Positions 1 through 9,631 of a DNA stretch of 9,631 bases are shown one piece after another. The position numbers and the translations under genes are program-made. This stretch comes from a virus (Duplodnaviria > Heunggongvirae > Uroviricota > Caudoviricetes). The stretch lies in the IMG/VR virus record IMGVR_UViG_2778261515_000017, positions 1-9,631 of that record. One strand, written 5' to 3'. Under the pieces are notes generated by a model. The model did not search any database and was not told the DNA's origin. It worked only from the letters and a program-made list of their open reading frames with translations. Position 1 is the stretch's first letter; each line of letters begins with the position of its first letter.

Positions 1-1257
1 GTGCTTACCGATACAAAATTAAAAAACCTCAAGCCGCAGGACAAACTGTACAAAGTCTCCGATCGTGACGGGCTGTATGTAGCTGTGCTTACGTCAGGTA
101 CGGTCTCATTTCGCTATGACTACCGTATCAACGGTCGCCGCGAAACACTGGTAATCGGGCAGTATGGGCGTGACGGTATCAGCCTGGCAGAAGCGCGGGA
201 AGAACTGATTGCTGCAAAGAAGCTGCTTAAAGCAGGCCAGTCACCGGCTGCGGCTAAACGTGACGGTATCAAAAAGATTCGTGGTGCCGAGACGTTTGCG
301 GTACATACCGACAGTTATATGAAACACGTCATCCTGGCTGACAGTACCCGCGCAATGAAACAGGCGGTGATCGACCGTGACATACTTCCGGTTCTTGGCA
401 ACAAAATGATGGCTGAAATTACCACATCGATGGTTCGTGATTTATGTGACCGGATTGTCGAACGCGGTGGCCGGGCAACAGCAGTACAGGCCAGGGAGAT
501 CATCAGCAGCGTATACCGTCACGCCAATGACCGTGGTCATGGTTTGTTTAATCCTGCGGCTGACATTAAACCTTCGTCTATCGCCATATTTAAACCACGA
601 GAGCGAACACTGACACCAGAAGAAATTGGTCTGTTCTTCCGTATGCTGGATGCCATTGGTGCTATGGGCACTATGAAAATGGCTTTAAAGCTGGTGCTTA
701 TCACTATGGTTCGTAAAGGCGAATTCACCAATGCAACGTGGGATGAAATAGATTTTAAAAAATGGACATGGACAATTCCTTCAGACCGCATGAAGGGAAG
801 TCGGGCGCACGTTATTTACCTGCCTAAACAGGCACAGGATATATTAATCGGGTTGCAGATGTGCGCTGGTGGAAGTGAATATCTGGTTCCTGGTCGTTAC
901 AATTTCCGGAAGCCATTATCTAATGCCGCGCTGAACTCTCTGATCGACAGAACGGTGAAAATAATAAATGAAGATGGTGAGCATATTCAGGACTTCACTG
1001 TACATGATATGCGCCGTACAGCCAGTACGTTGTTGCATGAGGCTGGTTATCCTTCAGACTGGATTGAAAAGGCTCTGGCACATGAGCAGAAAGGTGTGCG
1101 CGCCGTATATAACAAAGCGGAATACGCCAGACAGCGCGCCTACATGTTGCAGCAGTGGGCAGATATGATTGATTCCTGGATTAACGGGGAGCATACGGAT
1201 CTGATTCCGTTCTCCCCGTCGAAGTTTGAGAGGTGGATGGAAGGCAGTAATAAATAA
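1..1257 (+). CDS. int: Phage tyrosine integrase (P4-type, DUF4102-like N-terminal arm-binding domain plus catalytic domain); GTG start at position 1, so the CDS may begin at or just upstream of the window edge
   Basis: 418-aa ORF. N-terminus MLTDTKLKNLKP...GLYVAV...FRYDYR matches the conserved start of P4-family integrases. C-terminal HDMRRTAS...LAHEQKGVRAVYNKAEY matches the catalytic H-x-x-R ... Y region of tyrosine recombinases. Identification is from motif memory, not a search. Confidence 0.85.
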   Translation: MLTDTKLKNLKPQDKLYKVSDRDGLYVAVLTSGTVSFRYDYRINGRRETLVIGQYGRDGISLAEAREELIAAKKLLKAGQSPAAAKRDGIKKIRGAETFAVHTDSYMKHVILADSTRAMKQAVIDRDILPVLGNKMMAEITTSMVRDLCDRIVERGGRATAVQAREIISSVYRHANDRGHGLFNPAADIKPSSIAIFKPRERTLTPEEIGLFFRMLDAIGAMGTMKMALKLVLITMVRKGEFTNATWDEIDFKKWTWTIPSDRMKGSRAHVIYLPKQAQDILIGLQMCAGGSEYLVPGRYNFRKPLSNAALNSLIDRTVKIINEDGEHIQDFTVHDMRRTASTLLHEAGYPSDWIEKALAHEQKGVRAVYNKAEYARQRAYMLQQWADMIDSWINGEHTDLIPFSPSKFERWMEGSNK

Positions 1258-1259
1258 TT

Positions 1260-1919
1260 CTATCCTTCCTGGACTTTGGTAAGCGTCAGATTTCCGCAGA
1301 ACACTGCGCCGGTGTCGATGTACATCTGGTTTGCATACACCAGTGGGTGATGTGCTGGCGTATGACCGAAGATGAACAAATCGGCACCGGTTATCTCCGA
1401 GACAATACCGTCCTGCGCGCCGCTAACCCGCTCACGATTCCATATCACCATTTCTTCCGGTACTGGCTTATCGAATGCGTATTCGTTGTGCGGGTAGTCT
1501 GCGTGGCAGATGACGACCTTCTTATTGCCGGTAACCAGTTCGATAATCATCGGGAGGTTGGTAATCTTTGGCAGAAGGTATTTGAGTTTCACATCCTGCT
1601 CAGAATCAAGTTGGTGCCACCATCCACCGCCGTTTGACATCCAATGTCCGAAACTTCCGCCGTTGACCAGTGCATCCAGCATCATCTGCTCATGGTTGCC
1701 ACGAACAGCTCGGAACCACGGCATAGTAATCAAATCCAGGCATTCGACGTTTTCAGCGCCGCGGTCAACAAGGTCACCAACGGAAATAAGCAAATCGCGC
1801 GCCGGGTCGAATGAAACTTTGTCGAGTTCGTTCATCAGCAGCGTGTAGCACCCATGCAGATCGCCGACGACGAAGATATTGCACCAGTCAGCGCCATTGA
1901 TGCGTTGATATAGGTTCAT
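1260..1919 (-). CDS. Ser/Thr protein phosphatase, lambda PPase (NinI)-like metallophosphoesterase
   Basis: Translation from the internal ATG ([26 protein letters not shown]...GDLVDRG...GNHE...FIFGHTP...) carries the calcineurin-like GDxHG/GDxxDRG/GNHE motifs and is near-collinear with lambda PPase as I recall it. SD GGGAG 8 nt upstream of the ATG at 1919. The 40-codon upstream extension of the track ORF overlaps the methylase gene and is rejected. Confidence 0.85.
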
Positions 1920-2566
1920 GCTACACGCTCCCGCCCCTGGTTGTCTGTTGGTGACAGCGGAGCATTGCTGAATGCATTTGTTAATCCGCCAATATCCAAC
2001 GCGTATCCAGGATGTAGTTGCACTGCCGGGTCTTCGCACTGATTACCCCAAACATCGAAGCCATGAGACGACTGGCGGGCGAACAGTTCAATGCGAGAAA
2101 CATCGCCTAACAATTGCACAAGTTTTTCACGAACGATATCTGGTTTTCTTGAATGCTCAAGCCGCGGTGCGGTAAATGACTGAACGATCCCTGCATTAAT
2201 GCGCGTAGGTAGTTTTCCCTTTACCGCAAACAGGCAATCTTCACTATTGGCGCGAGTCATGTGTCCCATACCCATAACCAGTTTATCTGGTTGTCGGCTA
2301 CCACATTTTATCCACGTGAAGCCCTTCATCGTCATCAGACGAAATCCCCAGGCTTCAACAACTTTTAGTGCTTCGAGTGGTTGTGTTGGCACCCACCACA
2401 TGGCCAACAGACAGTTTTCAGCGGTCAAATCCCACACAGGAAGGCGGCAGATATCCAGCACACTCATAACAGGATATTTAAAGCCGGCACCGCGATTACC
2501 ATCTGCGGCTTTGTCCCGGTATACCCAGGGTGGATCTGCATAGATTAGTGTGTATTTCTTAGTCAT
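1916..2566 (-). CDS. MT-A70-family N6-adenine DNA methyltransferase (DPPW motif)
   Basis: [14 protein letters not shown]...; the DPPW catalytic motif is characteristic of the MT-A70 family. ATG at 2566 preceded by a G-rich SD; the GTG at 2578 is an alternative start. Its TGA stop overlaps the phosphatase ATG (ATGA). Confidence 0.75.
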
Positions 2567-2858
2567 AAACCACCCCACAACATCCTATGCCGCTATAGTC
2601 GCCACGGCGAAGGCCGTTACCTTTTGTGATACATTGGTCCCTGCGAACCGCGATCCTTGCACGCTCAACATCACCAGAAGCAACATCCATACACTGAAGC
2701 CAAAGGTGAGCGGCAATGCGGAACTGCCCTTTTTTCTCTCTTTCAATCGCGCGTTTTTCGATCTCTATCGCCGCAGGAGTAACGGCGACAATCTTTGACG
2801 GACTGCGCATTGAAACCTTGTTCATGTGATATTTTTCAAGTCGGCTTAACTTTCTCAC
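2559..2858 (-). CDS. ANR-family-like small protein (putative small regulator); start ambiguous (GTG 2858 with SD GAGAGGG, or ATG 2825 without clear SD)
   Basis: 99-aa ORF. Central ...GQFRIAAHLWLQCMDVA... resembles the conserved core of small prophage proteins annotated as ANR family, from memory. Overlaps the methylase start by 8 nt. Confidence 0.45.
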   Translation of the reverse strand: MRKLSRLEKYHMNKVSMRSPSKIVAVTPAAIEIEKRAIEREKKGQFRIAAHLWLQCMDVASGDVERARIAVRRDQCITKGNGLRRGDYSGIGCCGVVYD

Positions 2859-3265: not shown

Positions 3266-4207
3266 TTACATAGATGTTTCGTTTAATTCTTCCCGACGAA
3301 CGCTGTAAACGTCGGTGGCTTTTGCCAGCAGTTCGTCATCATCTGAAAGTTTTTGTGCAATGTATTTGTAAGCCTTATCCAGTTCGGAGACAGTGCTGTA
3401 ATTCATCGCTGCGCTGGTAAAGGCCATCAGCATTTCTTCTGGATCACGGCTATCCGCTTTACGCGTTTGCTCATCAGGCTTTTTCACTGTTTTAGCGTTG
3501 ATCAGACTATTAATTCCCGCAGCCGTAGTTGTTTGCGGAGTAATGTCTCGCTCAACGCGCGGTGCCGTTTCCTGTAATTCGTCAGGTGTATAGACGCCCA
3601 TGATTACGTCAGGACAGTGCAAGCGAGACCAGCGTTTTGTCGCAAGGTATGCGAGTTGTTGTTTCGGATCGCTGGCCCAAAGTGTGGAGTTTCTTACCTG
3701 TGCCTGAGACAGCATTAACTCGAGCACTCGAGGTTGATCCTCTCCCTTCATGGTTGCCCATACGCGAACACCGCAGCCTTCTTCGTCTTTTATAGTCCAG
3801 CCTGGTGCGATATACGGATTGCCGTTTTTGGATGTTTTCTCAACAAACTTACCGATCACGCGTTCCCACGGCCCGAACCACTCGTAGTTGATGCGATCTT
3901 TTGTTGGCGACATTGTTGAGATAACTGCGTTTACTAATTGGGCTTCATAACCTAGCGTGCCGTTCACAACATGGGTTTTCTGAGCCACGGCAAACGGGTT
4001 CATTCCCCACTGCGCAGCCTGCATTGCCACGGCCATGCAATCAGCTGGTTTCCCGGCGAGGTGCGCCGGTACCGTTACGCGGCTTTGCGCCATTACCTCG
4101 GCGAATTTCATCAGTTGGTTCAAGCCGTCTGGGCTGAAAATAGTTGCAGCAGTGCCAGCGATTGCTGTGTCTACTGGTGCGTTGATGTTTGCGATGTTGT
4201 TGCTCAT
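3266..4207 (-). CDS. recT: RecT/Redbeta-family single-strand annealing protein
   Basis: 313 aa. Shares an ERDITP segment with lambda Bet as I recall it, and sits immediately downstream of an exonuclease gene with a 4-nt ATGA start/stop overlap, the typical exo-SSAP pair. The family call has not been checked by search. Confidence 0.72.
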   Translation of the reverse strand: MSNNIANINAPVDTAIAGTAATIFSPDGLNQLMKFAEVMAQSRVTVPAHLAGKPADCMAVAMQAAQWGMNPFAVAQKTHVVNGTLGYEAQLVNAVISTMSPTKDRINYEWFGPWERVIGKFVEKTSKNGNPYIAPGWTIKDEEGCGVRVWATMKGEDQPRVLELMLSQAQVRNSTLWASDPKQQLAYLATKRWSRLHCPDVIMGVYTPDELQETAPRVERDITPQTTTAAGINSLINAKTVKKPDEQTRKADSRDPEEMLMAFTSAAMNYSTVSELDKAYKYIAQKLSDDDELLAKATDVYSVRREELNETSM

Positions 4208-5025
4208 ATGTACATATCCTGTTTACGTGCCCAGTCAGGGCGTTTAATAATTTCCACGCCACCCCATTCATCATTGATGCGGCATTCGTGATAGGTATTC
4301 AGATCCCGGCGGAACAGAGCGTGCCCGGTATCGACATCCTTCGCATCCAGCTCGAACACGCGTACCGGATACCGACCACAATCAATGCTTTCGCTCACGG
4401 CAAGAAAGAAAAAACCATGCGGCTGACCAGTAACCCTCATTGCGCCTTCACGGTACATTGCGTCCTGCACGTGGTAGCGGAATTCCTCGATGTGGCGAGC
4501 AAAACGATCCATATCTGCAACCTTTTTCACGTCGACGATTACGTTGTGCTCGTTCAGCCATTTGTCTGGACGAATTCGGCACAACTCACCCGTCTCTTCA
4601 TCGTTCCAGTACATTGATGCTTCGCAGTAACCAGGTGCTTCCAGCATCCAGCGTGCCGCCGGGTGAGCCATTGCGCTATCACGCATCAGCTCCAGTTTTC
4701 GCCACTGCTCTGCATCAAGTACCGAAATCCCCATATCCGCTACATCACGAATAAATGCCTCTTCGTCAGCTTTACCTTGTTTTGTCCGACGATCGAATTT
4801 CGGTGAAACGATGAAGCGTTTGTCAAACTCTCTAGGTTCCAGAAGCAGACAGTGCAGAGCAGTACCCATATCCAGTGCAGACTTCTTCTCTTCGTCTTCC
4901 GGAGCAGCCTTCACCCATTTCAGAAGGGCAGGGTTCTTAGCCACCATATCTAGCTGCGACTTACTCACGCCGTCACCGGCGTGGTAGTCCTCGTTGCTGA
5001 TATCGAAATAAATTCCCGGATTCAT
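4204..5025 (-). CDS. RecE-like PD-(D/E)XK exonuclease (nuclease domain only, DUF3799-like)
   Basis: 273 aa. N-terminal GIYFDISNEDYHAGDGVSKSQL resembles the start of the RecE catalytic domain. ...IRPDKW... and ...VIVDVKKV... fit D ... (D/E)xK nuclease motifs. SD GAGGG 7 nt upstream. ATGA overlaps with both neighbouring genes. Confidence 0.7.
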   Translation of the reverse strand: MNPGIYFDISNEDYHAGDGVSKSQLDMVAKNPALLKWVKAAPEDEEKKSALDMGTALHCLLLEPREFDKRFIVSPKFDRRTKQGKADEEAFIRDVADMGISVLDAEQWRKLELMRDSAMAHPAARWMLEAPGYCEASMYWNDEETGELCRIRPDKWLNEHNVIVDVKKVADMDRFARHIEEFRYHVQDAMYREGAMRVTGQPHGFFFLAVSESIDCGRYPVRVFELDAKDVDTGHALFRRDLNTYHECRINDEWGGVEIIKRPDWARKQDMYI

Positions 5026-5321
5026 GCCGCGTCCCTCTGCCCATCAATCTGATCAGCCAGATCCCAGCGGGCGATAATTGCCATTGCCTCGCGCCGGTAG
5101 GCATCCATTAGTTCTTCGAACTCAGGGCTGTCTTTAGCGGCCTCCAGTACTTCCTGGCGAACGCCTTTAACTGTTACAACGTCGAAAGTTGATGCCAGTT
5201 GATGAAGCCGGATACTCTCAATCAGTTCAACTTGTCGGTCATATAGCTGTTCTGACAGGCGGTAGTCCTTGTCGAATGCCAGCATGATTTTTTGAAGATT
5301 TTTCTGCTGATTAACGTTCAT
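5022..5321 (-). CDS. Hypothetical protein (99 aa), unknown function, second gene of the pL-type operon
   Basis: ORF with a strong SD (GGGAGG) 7 nt upstream of ATG 5321 (MNVNQQKNLQ...). Its stop overlaps the exonuclease start (ATGA). No recognisable motif. Confidence 0.55.
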   Translation of the reverse strand: MNVNQQKNLQKIMLAFDKDYRLSEQLYDRQVELIESIRLHQLASTFDVVTVKGVRQEVLEAAKDSPEFEELMDAYRREAMAIIARWDLADQIDGQRDAA

Positions 5322-5323
5322 TA

Positions 5324-5476
5324 TCAGCCCTCCCATATCTCGTTATCGTTGGCCACATCGCGAGCTTCTTTGCTGACGAAAGCCCACTTAATGCCTTCCT
5401 GTAAGGTGCGGAACTTCCAGCTCATGAATCCGCATGCAGTAACGCAGTACCAACCGTTGATGATTTTCCACTGCAT
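5324..5476 (-). CDS. Small ORF (50 aa, Trp/Cys-rich), first ORF downstream of the pL-type promoter; candidate Kil-like or small regulatory peptide
   Basis: ATG 5476 with SD GAGGT 8 nt upstream; translation MQWKIINGWYCVTACGFMSWKFRTLQEGIKWAFVSKEARDVANDNEIWEG. TGA stop lies 2 nt before the next ATG. Below the ORF-track length cutoff; supported only by SD and operon context. Confidence 0.35.
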   Translation of the reverse strand: MQWKIINGWYCVTACGFMSWKFRTLQEGIKWAFVSKEARDVANDNEIWEG

Positions 5477-5495
5477 AACTTGTTACCTCGGTCTG

Positions 5496-5572
5496 TTACC
5501 GTTGAGGTAATAATTATGCGTATATGGTTTGATGTCAATAGATATGAGTTAAAAAAATTACCCGTTAGGTAA
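5496..5572 (-). promoter_or_regulatory. pL-type promoter flanked by two operator palindromes (OL region)
   Basis: Operators TTACCGTTGAGGTAA (5496-5510) and TTACCCGTTAGGTAA (5558-5572), centres 62 bp apart. On the - strand, a perfect -35 TTGACA (complement of 5533-5538), 17-nt spacer, -10 AATTAT (complement of 5510-5515) whose last base is the first base of the downstream operator. Predicted TSS near 5503. Confidence 0.55.
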
Positions 5573-5582
5573 TCGAATAGGC

Positions 5583-5609
5583 AATAAAAAAGCCGCCATA
5601 AGGCGGCTT
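5583..5609 (-). terminator. Rho-independent terminator downstream of the repressor gene (tImm-like)
   Basis: 8-bp GC-rich stem AAGCCGCC/GGCGGCTT (5590-5597 with 5602-5609), 4-nt loop, followed on the - strand by a U-tract (complement of the A-run 5583-5589). No T-tract follows on the + strand, so it is unidirectional. Confidence 0.7.
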
Positions 5610-5629
5610 ACTTACTGAAAAATATGGTT

Positions 5630-6214
5630 TTATTGTTTGTTTTTTTCGTTCTGGTTGATGACAAATTCAATGTAACTTTCGATCTTTGCTTTCTCGGTTT
5701 CGGGTAACAATGCGTAGCGCGAGCGGTCATAGTTGATAGTCGCGGGGTCGTGCGGGTGAATCAGTAATTCATAGCCGTGACGCCCGAATGCGGATGCAAC
5801 ATTCTCCAGGGTGGAAATGGAAACGCTAACCTCATTGTTTAACAGGCGGCTGATTGTCACCTGGGCGACGCCGGATGCGCGGTGAAGTTTTCCCTGAGTT
5901 GAAAGGTCGCGGCTTTCGCTCATCCAGCGTTCCAGGTTGTGAGCCGCCAGCTGACCAATGTCGCTTGGGCCGACAGGCTGAAAACCTTCCTGAGAAAGCG
6001 AGCGATCGATATCAAGCCAGTTACGGGGTTTATTGGCGGCAGCTTCAATTTTTCGCGCAACCTGGTCGCCGATAACCTTCTTGCCAAGAGCCCAGCGGTT
6101 TACCAGATTTGCCTGAGTTCCAAGTTTTTCTGCCATCCGCGTCTGAACACCATTGAATTCACGGTCGATCAAGTCGTTGAGATTTTGCCTGCGGACGTCC
6201 TGGATACTTTTCAT
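5630..6214 (-). CDS. Prophage repressor at the cI position: dual-HTH protein (CII-like N-terminal HTH plus XRE-type HTH), with no LexA/S24 peptidase domain evident
   Basis: 194 aa. ...TRMAEKLGTQANLVNRWA... resembles the lambda CII HTH; ...GKLHRASGVAQVTISRLLNNEVSVSISTLENVASAFG... is XRE-like. Divergent from the Cro-like gene across an operator-rich region and followed by a strong terminator, which is the lambda immunity-region topology. Weak or absent SD, possibly leaderless like cI from pRM. Confidence 0.65.
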   Translation of the reverse strand: MKSIQDVRRQNLNDLIDREFNGVQTRMAEKLGTQANLVNRWALGKKVIGDQVARKIEAAANKPRNWLDIDRSLSQEGFQPVGPSDIGQLAAHNLERWMSESRDLSTQGKLHRASGVAQVTISRLLNNEVSVSISTLENVASAFGRHGYELLIHPHDPATINYDRSRYALLPETEKAKIESYIEFVINQNEKNKQ

Positions 6215-6269
6215 TTTCTGGAAAATCGCCTCATATATGAATCAGTAGATGATTCAATTTAAAGCAATA

Positions 6270-6343
6270 TTACCCAACAGGTAAATGCACCCCATAGGTA
6301 ACTATCCTTGATTTTTGTTACCTTATGGGTGAATATTTATTAT
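6270..6343. promoter_or_regulatory. Divergent OR-type operator region between the repressor and Cro-like genes, with a pR-type promoter
   Basis: Operators TTACCCAACAGGTAA (6270-6284), degenerate GCACCCCATAGGTAA (6287-6301) and TTACCTTATGGGTGA (6318-6332). Rightward promoter candidates: -35 TTGTTA (6315-6320), 17 nt, -10 TATTAT (6338-6343); or -35 TTGATT (6308-6313), 17 nt, -10 GAATAT (6331-6336). Either overlaps the 6318-6332 operator. No convincing leftward (pRM-type) hexamers found. Confidence 0.5.
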
Positions 6344-6368
6344 CTGAAATAAATATCAGGCAATAGCT

Positions 6369-6599
6369 ATGAGCGATAACGGACATTTCGATTTCAAAAA
6401 GCACTGGCTTGCACTTACTCCGGATGAGCGTGAAGCCTTCGCACAGGAAGCCGGAACGACGAGTCACTATATCCATACTCACTTAACAGGTAAGCGCAAA
6501 ATGCCAGGTAAAGTATTGATGAATGGGCTTTTTAAAGCCTGTAAAACAAGACAATGGCTGCGCTCAAAAGCAGAACTGGCATACTTCTTCTACTCATGA
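6369..6599 (+). CDS. Cro-like small HTH regulator (first gene of the rightward operon)
   Basis: 76 aa. HTH-like segment FAQEAGTTSHYIHTHLTGKRKMPGKVLMNGLFKAC. Divergent from the repressor gene; its promoter overlaps an operator palindrome. Confidence 0.55.
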   Translation: MSDNGHFDFKKHWLALTPDEREAFAQEAGTTSHYIHTHLTGKRKMPGKVLMNGLFKACKTRQWLRSKAELAYFFYS

Positions 6600-6620
6600 T
6601 ATCCAGCCACAACCCTCTGT

Positions 6621-6645
6621 AGACCGCCATCCGGCGGTCTTTTCA
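6621..6645 (+). terminator. Rho-independent terminator after the Cro-like gene (tR1-like)
   Basis: Stem AGACCGCC (6621-6628) / GGCGGTCT (6633-6640), loop ATCC, followed by TTTTC. Confidence 0.5.
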
Positions 6646-6749
6646 TATCTATTCGTACCTCAAAGGTAATAAAAAACCAAATATGGTTGATCTTTTTTTT
6701 GTGTCAGCACAAAATAACCGTAATCCCAATACTAATAACAGGGCTTACC

Positions 6750-6950
6750 ATGGAAATCATTACACGTATTGATGCCGCAAAGCGCGGACTTAAACGCTAC
6801 TACACCGGAAAACCATGTAAGCACGGACATGACAGTGAACGCTGGGTTTACAACGGACACTGTGTTGAGTGCACCATGGAATCAAACCGTCGCATCAGGG
6901 CAGAGATTAAGCAGATCATGATTAATTCCTCCCCACAACACTCAAGCTGA
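6750..6950 (+). CDS. Small Cys/His-rich putative zinc-binding protein (66 aa) at the cII position
   Basis: ATG 6750 with SD CAGGG; MEIITRIDAAKRGLKRYYTGKPCKHGHDSERWVYNGHCVEC... with a C-x-H-x-H ... C-x-x-C pattern. The track ORF starting at 6687 uses a TTG and is rejected as an N-terminal extension. Confidence 0.5.
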   Translation: MEIITRIDAAKRGLKRYYTGKPCKHGHDSERWVYNGHCVECTMESNRRIRAEIKQIMINSSPQHSS

Positions 6951-6965
6951 TAGCGGAGATTAATC

Positions 6966-7799
6966 ATGAGCAGACATGCAACAGATTGGGCCTGGGAGAC
7001 AGATCCAGGTAGCTCGTCATTAAAGCTCATACTGCTCTCGATGGCTGACAGAGCCGATGAATATAACCTCTGCTATCCCAGCATAGAACGCCTAGTTAAA
7101 GACACTTGCCTGAATAAAAAAACCGTACAGGCCGGGCTTATATCGCTCATGAAAATGGGGCTTATTTCAGATACCGGAGAGAGAAAGGGAGCGACGAAAA
7201 GAGTGCGGGTTTTCTCTCTTAATATAACCAAAAACGGGAACATTAAAGGCAACCGGGAAGGGGGTAACGATCCCAAAAACGGTAATGTTACCGAAAACGG
7301 GAATATACCCAAAAACGGGATGTTGAATGATCCCAAAAACGGGATGTTGAATGATCCCAAAAACGGGATCCAGAACCAGTCATATAACCAGTCATTTAAC
7401 CAAGAGAGGGAGAGCAGGACAAAAATCGGGGATTCCGTGCCCCATGACCCCGGCGCAAACAACGCCGTGATGAATAACTTTGTTCCTCCAGGTGGGCCAG
7501 GGCAATTAGGCAAATTTGTCATGCATGAACAATGGCAGCCATCAGATGACTTTCTTCGGAAAAGCTCATTGCAGGGAATCTACCTGGGCAGTCTGCCAAC
7601 GGCACAGGAACTTGCAGAGTTCAGAATTTACTGGATGGCTGAGGGTAAGGCATACCATCAGGCGCAGTGGGAGCAGAAGCTGGCAAGGCGCATCCAGTTC
7701 TGTAGACAGAAATCAGGTGAAGTCAGAAAGAGCCTTGACTGGCATAACACTGACTGGATAGATGAGGTGTGGGATGAAATCAACTCCAGAACTTCTTAA
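6966..7799 (+). CDS. Replication initiation protein (O-like): N-terminal winged HTH, central iteron-encoded repeat linker, C-terminal DnaT-like domain
   Basis: 277 aa. N-terminus LKLILLSMADRADEYNLCYPSIERLVKDTCLNKKTVQAGLISLMKMGLI is typical of phage replication-initiator HTH domains. The central NDPKNGML repeats are encoded by the DNA iterons. Immediately upstream of the P homolog. SD GGAG 7 nt upstream. Confidence 0.75.
   Translation: MSRHATDWAWETDPGSSSLKLILLSMADRADEYNLCYPSIERLVKDTCLNKKTVQAGLISLMKMGLISDTGERKGATKRVRVFSLNITKNGNIKGNREGGNDPKNGNVTENGNIPKNGMLNDPKNGMLNDPKNGIQNQSYNQSFNQERESRTKIGDSVPHDPGANNAVMNNFVPPGGPGQLGKFVMHEQWQPSDDFLRKSSLQGIYLGSLPTAQELAEFRIYWMAEGKAYHQAQWEQKLARRIQFCRQKSGEVRKSLDWHNTDWIDEVWDEINSRTS
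7228..7405. repeat. Origin-of-replication iterons inside the O-like gene, plus downstream short direct repeats
   Basis: Six copies of the core CC(A/G)AAAACGG at about 7229, 7273, 7291, 7308, 7332 and 7356. The last three are spaced exactly 24 bp apart and form the palindrome ATCCC-AAAAAC-GGGAT, resembling lambda ori iterons. Followed by AACCAGTCAT direct repeats at 7374-7383 and 7386-7395. Four GATC sites fall within 7269-7370. Confidence 0.65.
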
Positions 7800-8556
7800 T
7801 GAGTACTATCGCTTTCGTGGTGGGCATGACCACTCGACGGTGGTTGCTTCTGCTGACGATGAAAGGGCAAAGAAGGAGCAGGTTGCAAGAATTTTCAACG
7901 AAATGTTTGTCCAGTTGCAGGCTGCATTTCCAGGCAGCATCGCTGCTATCAGCGAACAGGGAAAGCTAAACGAATTTCGAAAACAATGGATGCTTGCGTT
8001 TCTGGAGAATGGGATCACTACAATGGAACAGGTTAACGCTGGTATGCGCCACGCCCGCGCCAGTGAATCTCCGTTCTGGCCGTCGCCTGGGCAATTCATC
8101 AAGTGGTGCAAAGACAGCAAGATGGTTCTTGGCGTCACCATTGACGATGTGATGGCGGAGTTTCATCGGTACAGCAAGGAAAAAAGTTTATATCCTGGTG
8201 GTCCAGAAAGATTCCCGTGGCGACATCCGGTTATGTACTGGGTTGTATGTGATACCCGCCGCGCAATGTATCAGCGCCAGCTTAGCGAGATTGAGGTTGA
8301 GAAACACGCGCGCAGGCTGCTCGATGATTGGGCGAAAAAGGTGGCTTCCGGACAGCAGATACCCGATCCGGTGATCAGCATACAGGCAAAGCCAGAACCC
8401 ATGAGTACGCCTCCGGACACAGGGAGAGACGTTTACCATCCACCAGGGCGAAGTTTCGGGTGCATGCCTAACGCCGCCACCCTGGGGGGAATAACACCGG
8501 CGCAGTGGCTGATGGAGGAATACAGGCGGGGAAAGGCGGCAGGATTTATCAAGTAA
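7774..8556 (+). CDS. P: Replication protein P homolog (DnaB helicase loader)
   Basis: Contains ...FLENGITTMEQVNAGMR...FWPSPGQF..., near-identical to the lambda P segment FRENGITTMEQVNAGMR...FLPSPGQF as I recall it. ATG 7774 with SD GAGG; 26-nt overlap with the end of the O-like gene. Confidence 0.85.
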   Translation: MKSTPELLNEYYRFRGGHDHSTVVASADDERAKKEQVARIFNEMFVQLQAAFPGSIAAISEQGKLNEFRKQWMLAFLENGITTMEQVNAGMRHARASESPFWPSPGQFIKWCKDSKMVLGVTIDDVMAEFHRYSKEKSLYPGGPERFPWRHPVMYWVVCDTRRAMYQRQLSEIEVEKHARRLLDDWAKKVASGQQIPDPVISIQAKPEPMSTPPDTGRDVYHPPGRSFGCMPNAATLGGITPAQWLMEEYRRGKAAGFIK

Positions 8557-8560
8557 TACC

Positions 8561-8581
8561 AGCGCGATAGCGCATTTTTTT
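8561..8581 (+). terminator. Weak terminator-like hairpin plus T-run just after the P stop codon
   Basis: Short stem AGCGC / GCGCA around loop GATA, then a T-run 8575-8581. The stem is only about 5 bp, so this is marginal. Confidence 0.3.
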
Positions 8582-8593
8582 ACGTCTCAATAA

Positions 8594-8670
8594 TTACCTA
8601 TTGGGTAATAAAATATTCTAAACTCTATTGATTTCGTGTCTTATGTGGTTTTTAATTACCTCAAGGGTAA
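8594..8670 (+). promoter_or_regulatory. Third operator-flanked promoter (P3) upstream of the DUF1064-like gene; same geometry as the pL-type cassette
   Basis: Operators TTACCTATTGGGTAA (8594-8608) and TTACCTCAAGGGTAA (8656-8670), centres 62 bp apart. -35 TTGATT (8628-8633), 17-nt spacer, -10 TTTAAT (8651-8656) ending on the first T of the downstream operator. Gap from upstream operator to -35 is 19 nt, as in the pL-type cassette. Confidence 0.5.
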
Positions 8671-8673
8671 ATC

Positions 8674-9021
8674 ATGAGAAAACAGATACAGGCTCTTGGT
8701 CGACTCAAAACAGGCCAGATGAACAAAACAGAATCTGCGTATTGCCAGCACCTTGAGCAGCGTAAACGCGCAGGGGAAATCGCCTGGTATCGATTCGAGG
8801 GTATCAAGCTGCGGTTAGCCGACAACACGTTCTATACGCCCGATTTTGCTGTGATGCTCGCCACCGGAGAGATGGAACTGCACGAAGTGAAAGGGGGATT
8901 CTGGACCGACGACGCCAGGGTGAAAACCAAAGTAGCCGCAGATCAGTATCCGTTCCGAATCATCGGGGTAACGGTTAAACCAAAGAAAGCAGGTGGTGGC
9001 TGGAACATCGAAGAATTCTGA
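8674..9021 (+). CDS. DUF1064-family phage protein (possible PD-(D/E)XK-like fold)
   Basis: 115 aa. ...NKTESAYCQHLEQRKRAGEIAWYRFEGIKLRL...YTPDF...ELHEVKG... matches the DUF1064 signature as I recall it. Its start codon lies 4 nt downstream of an operator palindrome. Confidence 0.6.
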   Translation: MRKQIQALGRLKTGQMNKTESAYCQHLEQRKRAGEIAWYRFEGIKLRLADNTFYTPDFAVMLATGEMELHEVKGGFWTDDARVKTKVAADQYPFRIIGVTVKPKKAGGGWNIEEF

Positions 9022-9082
9022 ATCGACGATCTTTTTAGTTATCAATGTAATCAATAAGTTATGTGGATAAGCGAGGGTAAAG

Positions 9083-9631
9083 ATGGAAAGTATGGCTGAA
9101 GGTACGATCAAAGATTTAGTGGCATCAGGACATGCGTTAGCTGACGACATGACAGGTGCACCATCCGTGCTTGTTCGCTGTTTGGCAACGCAACTGGAAG
9201 TACAACTGGTGCGTGCTAATGCGCTGGCCGAAGACCGCATCACCACCGAACACTGTCAGGCGCTGGCGCTGGAGAACGACACCGCGCGTCAGGTGCAGGT
9301 GTTTGAAGCCGCCTGTCAGTCGGGATGGGGCGGTAAACCGGAAGTACAGACCATTCGTCGTCTGGTGACCGAAAGTGAAGTGGCGGTGGCGGGGAACAGT
9401 AAATTCCGCTTCGTGGGGGCTGATGCCTTCTCGCCAGACGAACTGCGCACCGATTTGTTCAGCGATGACGGGGACGGTTATGTCGACCGCGTGGCGCTCG
9501 ATGCCGCCCTGCTGGAAAAACTCCAGGCTGTCGCTGAACACCTTCGGGAAGCCGAAGGCTGGGAATGGTGCGCCGGACGCATGGAGCCTGTCGGTGAGTG
9601 CCGTGAGGATGCCGGAACATACCGCTGTCTG
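9083..9631 (+). CDS. Unknown acidic protein, 3'-truncated by the window edge (at least 183 codons with no stop); GC-rich relative to the rest of the window
   Basis: ATG 9083 with SD GAGGG 5 nt upstream; the frame stays open to the window end. Translation MESMAEGTIKDLVASGHALADD... is protein-like, whereas the overlapping minus-strand track ORFs look like GC-driven artefacts. No recognisable family. Confidence 0.45.
   Translation, partial: MESMAEGTIKDLVASGHALADDMTGAPSVLVRCLATQLEVQLVRANALAEDRITTEHCQALALENDTARQVQVFEAACQSGWGGKPEVQTIRRLVTESEVAVAGNSKFRFVGADAFSPDELRTDLFSDDGDGYVDRVALDAALLEKLQAVAEHLREAEGWEWCAGRMEPVGECREDAGTYRCL

Follow-up and report, generated by a model that had tools for sequence, protein, structure and literature searches.

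An open reading frame in a phiV10/epsilon15-type prophage that joins a phage eae-like gene to the plasmid leading-region gene herB

Main finding

The stretch of DNA analysed here (9,631 nt, called the window) ends inside an open reading frame that starts with the ATG at 9083 and runs on the + strand for 183 codons without a stop to the last base. Judged from its alignments, this frame is an in-frame hybrid of two known genes, eae'::'herB(delta 1-~185), in which the beginning of a phage eae-like gene is joined to an internal part of herB, a gene of the leading region of conjugative plasmids. We consider it likely that the hybrid is a recent and probably non-functional passenger remnant of the capture of plasmid leading-region DNA by the phage, and that ardA, which is carried further downstream in the nearest relatives, was the likely selected cargo.

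Prophage setting

By gene content, the window represents a prophage left arm of the phiV10/epsilon15 type (Uetakevirus-like). From the integrase to the early-right arm the genes are integrase, metallophosphoesterase, MT-A70 methylase, PerC-like, AlpA-like, RecT, PD-(D/E)XK, repressor, DnaT-like, P and DUF1064. Phage phiV10 has this order too, and so do the guaA-adjacent prophages of E. coli ETEC4085 and ETEC1749. The gene directly upstream of the hybrid frame matches Pfam DUF1064, as the sequence-only reading of this DNA had proposed; it has the position of phiV10p45 and is one of the early-right genes of the phiV10 type. An 'eae-like' gene follows DUF1064 in phiV10 and in native prophages, for example that of KFu019, and this gene is in turn followed by a variable set of ead/Ea22, DUF551 and NinX genes up to the small terminase. 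The features discussed in this paper are collected in Table 1.

Two copies of an 18-nt element, TAATTACC-N5-GGGTAA, were seen at 8591-8608 and 8653-8670, 62 nt apart. Both occupy the AT-rich gap that separates gene P from DUF1064, with 4 nt between the end of the second copy and the DUF1064 ATG, and each copy holds the palindrome TTACC-N5-GGTAA. These repeats may be a binding site for a regulator. The sole promoter-like match in the same gap is on the minus strand.

The other end of the window also varies among related prophages. Positions 1241-1913 have no match in the prophages of ETEC4085 or ETEC1749, where a DUF1382 gene is found instead, and from this comparison the region appears to be a second variable accessory slot. 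PerC-like regulators carried by prophages of pig ETEC-related strains may have an effect on host virulence regulation.

Table 1. Positions of the features of the window that are discussed in the text
Feature	Position	Strand	Basis or remark
Integrase	1-1257		
Calcineurin-like metallophosphoesterase, 259 aa	1260-2039	-	Pfam Metallophos E=2e-15; adjoins integrase
MT-A70 family methyltransferase	1916-2578	-	early-left arm
PerC-family transcriptional activator homologue	2559-2858	-	early-left arm
Repressor	5630-6214	-	
DUF1064 gene, 115 aa	8674-9021	+	Pfam DUF1064 E=1.1e-5; PHROG 190 'Holliday junction resolvase' E=1e-43
Minus-strand ORF, 143 aa	8815-9246	-	overlaps chimeric ORF
Shine-Dalgarno GAGGG	9073-9077	+	5 nt before ATG 9083; read from sequence
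Phage-derived 5' part, eae-like codons 1-49, GC 49%	9083-9229	+	KFu019 100%; P0087; PHROG 492 aa 3-51
Minus-strand ORF, 134 aa	9137-9541	-	overlaps chimeric ORF
Recombination junction, 18 nt common to both parents, 17/18 identical	9219-9236	+	ATGCGCTGGC[C/A]GAAGACC
Plasmid-derived D2 tail, HerB residues 191-235, helices after HTH recognition helix	9237-9370	+	BLASTP p1658/97 99%, F 88%
Plasmid-derived first half of D3, HerB residues 238-322, cut by window end	9377-9631	+	BLASTP; PHROG 7783

Two parents and their junction

The first part of the frame is of phage origin. Window positions 8560-9236 are 100% identical to the prophage of E. coli KFu019, and residues 1-51 of the frame are the N-terminus of the native 213-aa eae-like protein P0087; homology with eae-like proteins ends at aa 51. 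The 43 nt 5' of the ATG are the same in phiV10, ETEC4085 and ETEC1749, and the GAGGG within them reads as the phage eae-like gene's own signal for translation start.

The remaining part is of plasmid origin. Positions 9219-9631 showed 99.3-99.5% identity to codons 185-322 of the leading-region gene yfjB/yubM (herB), which is annotated as 'ParB/RepB/Spo0J family partition protein' and which at least 5,000 PLSDB plasmids carry, for the most part conjugative ones of IncF/IncI. With BLASTP, aa 46-183 align with residues 185-322 of the protein of plasmid p1658/97, which has 652 aa (137/138 identical, no gaps, E = 5e-99), so that window residue n is HerB residue n+139; YfjB of the F plasmid aligned at 88% identity with the same numbering, also without gaps. 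The sequence-only reading had found no family for this protein and called for BLASTP. That search returned a known homolog, the plasmid protein, for codons 46-183, and codons 1-51 proved to be the phage eae-like N-terminus.

The two-part nature of the frame was revealed by PHROGs and not by Pfam. The match to phrog_492 covers aa 3-51 and that to phrog_7783 covers aa 45-181 (profile positions 151-288 of 634), whereas Pfam gave no match on the window fragment and none on the 588-aa chimera of the relatives described below.

The window, KFu019, p1658/97, an IncI-gamma plasmid and F were aligned base by base at the junction. In both parents the shared 18-mer is read in the same frame, as ALAED. 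Phage-specific bases end at 9229 and plasmid-specific ones begin at 9237; the crossover falls within 9230-9236. The 24-mer which marks this type of junction is AATGCGCTGGCCGAAGACCGCATC. Read from this alignment, the join between eae and herB is a short-homology crossover, and the fusion is in frame because the microhomology itself is co-phased in both parents.

Relatives with the same junction

Among 5,426 complete E. coli genomes, three cover at least 80% of positions 8560-9631 and only two have the junction of the window. These are ETEC4085 (Belgium, pig) and rl0044 (Switzerland, pig), both complete chromosomes. The two encode one and the same chimeric ORF of 588 aa, made up of eae 1-45, HerB 185-652 and the C-terminal 75 aa of a leading-region protein that has 198 aa. 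The first reading was right that the ORF is cut by the window edge. A deletion took the herB stop codon, psiB, psiA and the start of the gene for the 198-aa protein, and an intact ardA comes after the chimeric ORF. The herB region is annotated by PGAP as a pseudogene missing N- and C-termini.

In both chromosomes a plasmid block of ~3.4 kb stands in place of ~3.2 kb of native accessory genes. IncI-gamma plasmids of the same pig ETEC collection have collinear leading regions that are 98-99% identical to it. In the IncI-complex leading region of the ETEC1731 plasmid (CP122819.1) the order is ssb - DUF905 - parB-like - psiB - psiA - orf198 - ssi - ardA, and regions of this type agree with the block of ETEC4085 and rl0044 at that level with an identical ArdA. 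They differ in that the prophages have herB only from ~codon 185, psiB and psiA deleted, orf198 truncated and fused, and the block placed in a phage operon; only its first 413 nt are visible in the window.

The window is identical to rl0044 over 6,027 nt (3560-9586, 100%), and all 10 differences fall in 9587-9628. Over its last 45 nt the window has the herB allele that is common on plasmids; in rl0044 and ETEC4085 a divergent patch of ~330 nt starts here. Because the window and its relatives differ there, the herB segment would have swapped sequence with plasmid copies after the capture, and we take this as sequence evidence that herB copies on the prophage and on plasmids have undergone gene conversion with each other. 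For the same reason the downstream structure of the window, including the last HerB domain (D4) and ardA, is deduced from the relatives and not seen in the window's own genome. The strain rl0044 also has an IncI-type plasmid (NZ_CP121357.1), whose ardA segment at 38641-40482 is 99.9% identical to the prophage copy; this plasmid is a plausible donor, or a plausible partner in a continuing exchange.

The ~460-nt spacer before ardA (ETEC4085, locus L001 14291-14752) is predicted to form a long hairpin as single-stranded DNA, with z values of -3.5 (+) and -4.5 (-). The folding is consistent with a single-strand promoter of the ssi/Frpo type carried into the phage with ardA.

A different left junction between eae and herB is found in the ETEC1749 prophage. 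It has an 8-nt microhomology, lies ~14 codons further upstream in herB and is out of frame. Only ~134 herB codons are kept there, deleted into the C-terminus of psiA, and the right junction is also different. The ETEC1749 prophage still encodes the identical ArdA (WP_000117622.1) and an intact 198-aa protein. Overlaps of 6-30 nt between the segments that meet were found at every junction and internal deletion (ETEC1749 locus L002 8521-9224; ETEC4085 locus L001 14048-14064), which is typical of illegitimate or short-homology recombination.

Outside these chromosomes the arrangement is rare. Exact 42-mer, 30-mer and 24-mer scans for the continuation of the window or for other carriers of the junction gave zero matches in IMG/VR, and also zero in the GTDB species-representative genomes and JGI metagenomes. 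When a set of 5.8 billion proteins was queried with the 183-aa fragment and the 588-aa relative, no chimera was among the matches, which were normal HerB (652/682 aa), HerB fragments and normal eae-like proteins. Two HerB loci in IMG/VR are ordinary plasmid-type ssb-herB-psiB regions. The ardA block had no megablast match in 50,697 phage records, and the junction was likewise absent there; HerB itself was found in INPHARED by tblastn only in two distant (25-27%) unannotated faecal contigs. The HerB preprint lists no more than three cyanophage homologues (PMC13370423).

The plasmid parent and what the product has lost

In p1658/97, an IncI-gamma plasmid and F alike, the plasmid gene has ssb/DUF905 on one side and psiB on the other, and one member of the family is named YubM in UniRef. 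The F gene yfjB was characterised in a July 2026 preprint and renamed HerB (Virolle et al. 2026; PMC13370423); 'ParB2' is another name for the protein. The p1658/97 protein (652 aa, 71.48 kDa) equals the published HerB in length and mass, and has G91, R94, A97, M128, E130, R168, R172 and K175 at the published positions. From these sequence comparisons we identify the plasmid parent as HerB (YfjB/YubM).

HerB is described as a zygotically induced, CTP-binding, ParB-like protein of the leading region of F and related IncF/IncI plasmids that becomes associated with the host chromosome, reprograms transcription and makes plasmid acquisition less costly (PMC13370423). It consists of D1 (1-136, CTP binding), D2 (137-235, HTH), D3 (238-417) and D4 (418-652, dimerisation core) (PMC13370423). 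Mutations of R168/R172/K175, R94 or E130 reduce or abolish HerB foci, for which all domains are required according to the authors' conclusion, and D3D4 and D4 constructs give only a diffuse nucleoid-confined signal (PMC13370423).

In the chimera, homology with HerB begins at residue 185-191. D1 is absent, including Box II (G91-A97 with R94) and Box III (with E130). The HTH residues R168, R172 and K175 are upstream of the junction and are absent too, and the remnant of D2 is residues ~186-235. The Pfam results agree with this: ParB_N (38-131) and HTH_ParB (136-222) are found on the full plasmid protein, and neither was detected in the window ORF or in the 588-aa relative. Residues 238-322 of D3 are in the window at 99% identity, and D3 is complete in ETEC4085 and rl0044. 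D4 lies beyond the window and is present to residue 652 in these near-identical prophages. No sequence match was found in the PDB copy that was searched; the HerB entries cited in PMC13370423 are evidently not in that copy.

Because D1 and the HTH residues R168/R172/K175 are missing, the chimera would be unable to act as the CTP-dependent DNA clamp of HerB. It would at most be a D4-mediated dimer with non-specific affinity for the nucleoid.

Comparison with known systems

HerB of F and IncI plasmids is the nearest known protein for the larger part of the frame: the gapless match reaches 99% with p1658/97 and the IncI-gamma plasmid and, in the relatives, runs to the last HerB residue, 652. The chimera differs from HerB in that residues 1-~185 are gone and a foreign N-terminus of 45-50 aa is present instead; in the relatives the herB stop codon is also missing and 75 aa of another protein are added. 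The surroundings differ as well. HerB is encoded on plasmids between ssb/DUF905 and psiB, behind the ssi/Frpo promoter, whereas the chimera is in the early operon of a prophage behind DUF1064.

The eae-like/Ea22-like proteins of lambdoid and epsilon15/phiV10-type phages (phiV10p46, P0087) are encoded in the same slot directly after DUF1064. P0087 has the same SD, ATG and residues 1-51, and PHROG 492 covers this N-terminal module. In contrast to these proteins, everything past residue ~51 of the chimera has been swapped for plasmid sequence.

Proposed origin and possible function

We propose that recombination took place between a temperate phage of the phiV10/epsilon15-like kind (Uetakevirus type) and the leading region of an IncI/IncF-type conjugative plasmid. 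The left crossover would have used the 18-nt ALAED microhomology and joined the phage SD, the ATG and ~50 eae codons to herB from ~186-191. The captured block would have displaced the eae/ead accessory genes, and its right end, in the two nearest relatives, lies past an intact ardA. Whenever the early-right genes are transcribed, translation of the hybrid would begin at the native eae start, and the hybrid product would keep the D2 tail, D3 and, in the relatives, D4.

The ETEC1749 prophage, which lost the frame and most of herB and kept an identical ArdA, argues for the passenger status of the hybrid and suggests that ardA would be the payload. Over 413 nt, and leaving the junction overlap aside, the window departs from the closest plasmid alleles by only 2 substitutions (9391 and 9577), which are both third-position changes. 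The capture is so recent that the intact frame is no evidence of selection, and the frame was for this reason rejected as a test of selection. The herB part is probably not under selection.

Several points run counter to the passenger reading. In ETEC4085 and rl0044 the frame is open for 588 codons across three joined segments, behind the native SD and ATG. The same junction is present in three sequences of pig isolates from two countries as well as in the window. By analogy with the D3D4 constructs of HerB, the nucleoid association of which was reported (PMC13370423), the product may have some residual or new activity.

It is unlikely, in our estimation, that the truncated HerB is functional, either as a D3-D4 dimer that binds the nucleoid and alters host physiology while the phage develops, or as a dominant-negative 'poison subunit' which forms heterodimers through D4 with the HerB of incoming plasmids and hinders them in becoming established. 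The in-frame, intact ORF of 588 aa with a native translation start would agree with such a function, as would D4 being the dimerisation core and the D3D4 constructs staying nucleoid-associated (PMC13370423). Heterodimers of HerB and the chimera are plausible because the D4 of the relatives is ~97-99% identical to that of plasmid alleles. The parB-like gene of IncI plasmids was also reported to alter transfer host-specifically (bioRxiv 10.1101/2022.07.06.498992). On the other side, ETEC1749 destroyed the frame and most of the gene but kept ardA, and the capture is too recent for an open frame to signal selection. The early-right operon is normally repressed in a lysogen and a consensus scan detected no promoter of the gene's own, so the chimera would rarely meet an incoming plasmid. 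That searches of IMG/VR, the GTDB species representatives, JGI metagenomes and the large protein set turned up no chimera also speaks against function. Less probable still is that the phage has domesticated HerB D3-D4, so that it poisons the HerB of incoming F/I-type plasmids or acts on the nucleoid for the benefit of the phage.

The leading region with the parB-like gene is deletion-prone in IncI plasmids (Benz et al. preprint, bioRxiv 10.1101/2022.07.06.498992); the term 'ParB-like' is absent from the published version of that work (PMC10104558).

Composition and other explanations

The 183-aa fragment has a pI of 4.48, with 33 D+E and 17 K+R, in agreement with the acidic protein first described. 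In 60-nt steps the GC content is 55-67% from ~9203 onward. Divided at the junction, the frame has 49% GC and 38% GC3 at 9083-9218, where the GC is that of the whole window (also 49%), and 62% GC and 66% GC3 at 9219-9631. The step from 49% to 62% GC coincides with the recombination junction. The raised GC which had been ascribed to the gene as a whole is right from 9203 on but not for its first part, and the comparison of GC and GC3 puts the step inside the ORF, not at its start.

This GC content had led to the proposal of a horizontally acquired moron. The GC-rich DNA is indeed foreign to the prophage backbone, but it is an internal gene fragment fused to a resident phage gene. GC above the phage backbone and a fragment without a Pfam match are what an independently acquired moron with a novel acidic protein of an unrecognised family would give; with foreign DNA that starts ~136 nt inside the ORF, 99% identity to the internal part of a very common plasmid gene, and a start codon and SD that belong to the phage eae-like gene, this explanation is hardly credible. 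The sequence-only reading had named a short protein with a clear known homolog as something that would refute it. The homolog is clear (HerB), but the ORF of the relatives is long, with 588 aa. The foreign DNA is not a gene inserted whole between two phage genes with a promoter and terminator of its own, as the internal fragment begins inside a phage ORF. Within 8300-9631 no + strand promoter-like site and no terminator-like site were found by consensus scan, which is a weak test.

Mis-joining of plasmid and prophage reads during assembly is just as improbable. In its favour, the plasmid-like sequence runs to the window end, and many strains have herB as a multi-copy repeat. However, the same junction is present in the finished chromosomes of ETEC4085 and rl0044, with phage DNA flanking the plasmid block on both sides, and the window is 100% identical to rl0044 over the 6,027 nt to 9586.

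That the two minus-strand ORFs are the true genes can practically be dismissed: both are open and longer than 130 aa, but 15 of the 19 nucleotide differences between the window and the 94.7%-identical ETEC1749 allele are at third codon positions of the + frame (binomial P = 6e-5), equivalent to position 1 of the minus ORF, and the + frame is an annotated, conserved plasmid gene. Expression from the minus strand, which had been raised as a possibility, thus finds no support in these differences, and the two ORFs look like by-products of high GC. The gapless alignment with the plasmid protein from aa 46 onward (99%, E = 5e-99) and the bias to codon position 3 indicate that the + frame is real coding sequence and not a chance ORF; its 183 open codons and its good SD (GAGGG) were correctly read at first.

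Significance

The hybrid is a rare arrangement of known genes and does not represent a novel gene family. It gives a clean and datable case in which a temperate phage took up DNA of a plasmid leading region through microhomology-mediated recombination, and in near-identical relatives the captured block includes the anti-restriction gene ardA. It also shows that a phage accessory slot can hold a gene fragment which looks like one of the 'orphan GC-rich ORFs'. If the truncated HerB were active after all, which has a low probability, it would be a case of phage-plasmid antagonism through a newly described host-reprogramming protein, and if the chimera did poison HerB, the prophage would hinder the establishment of F/I-type plasmids.
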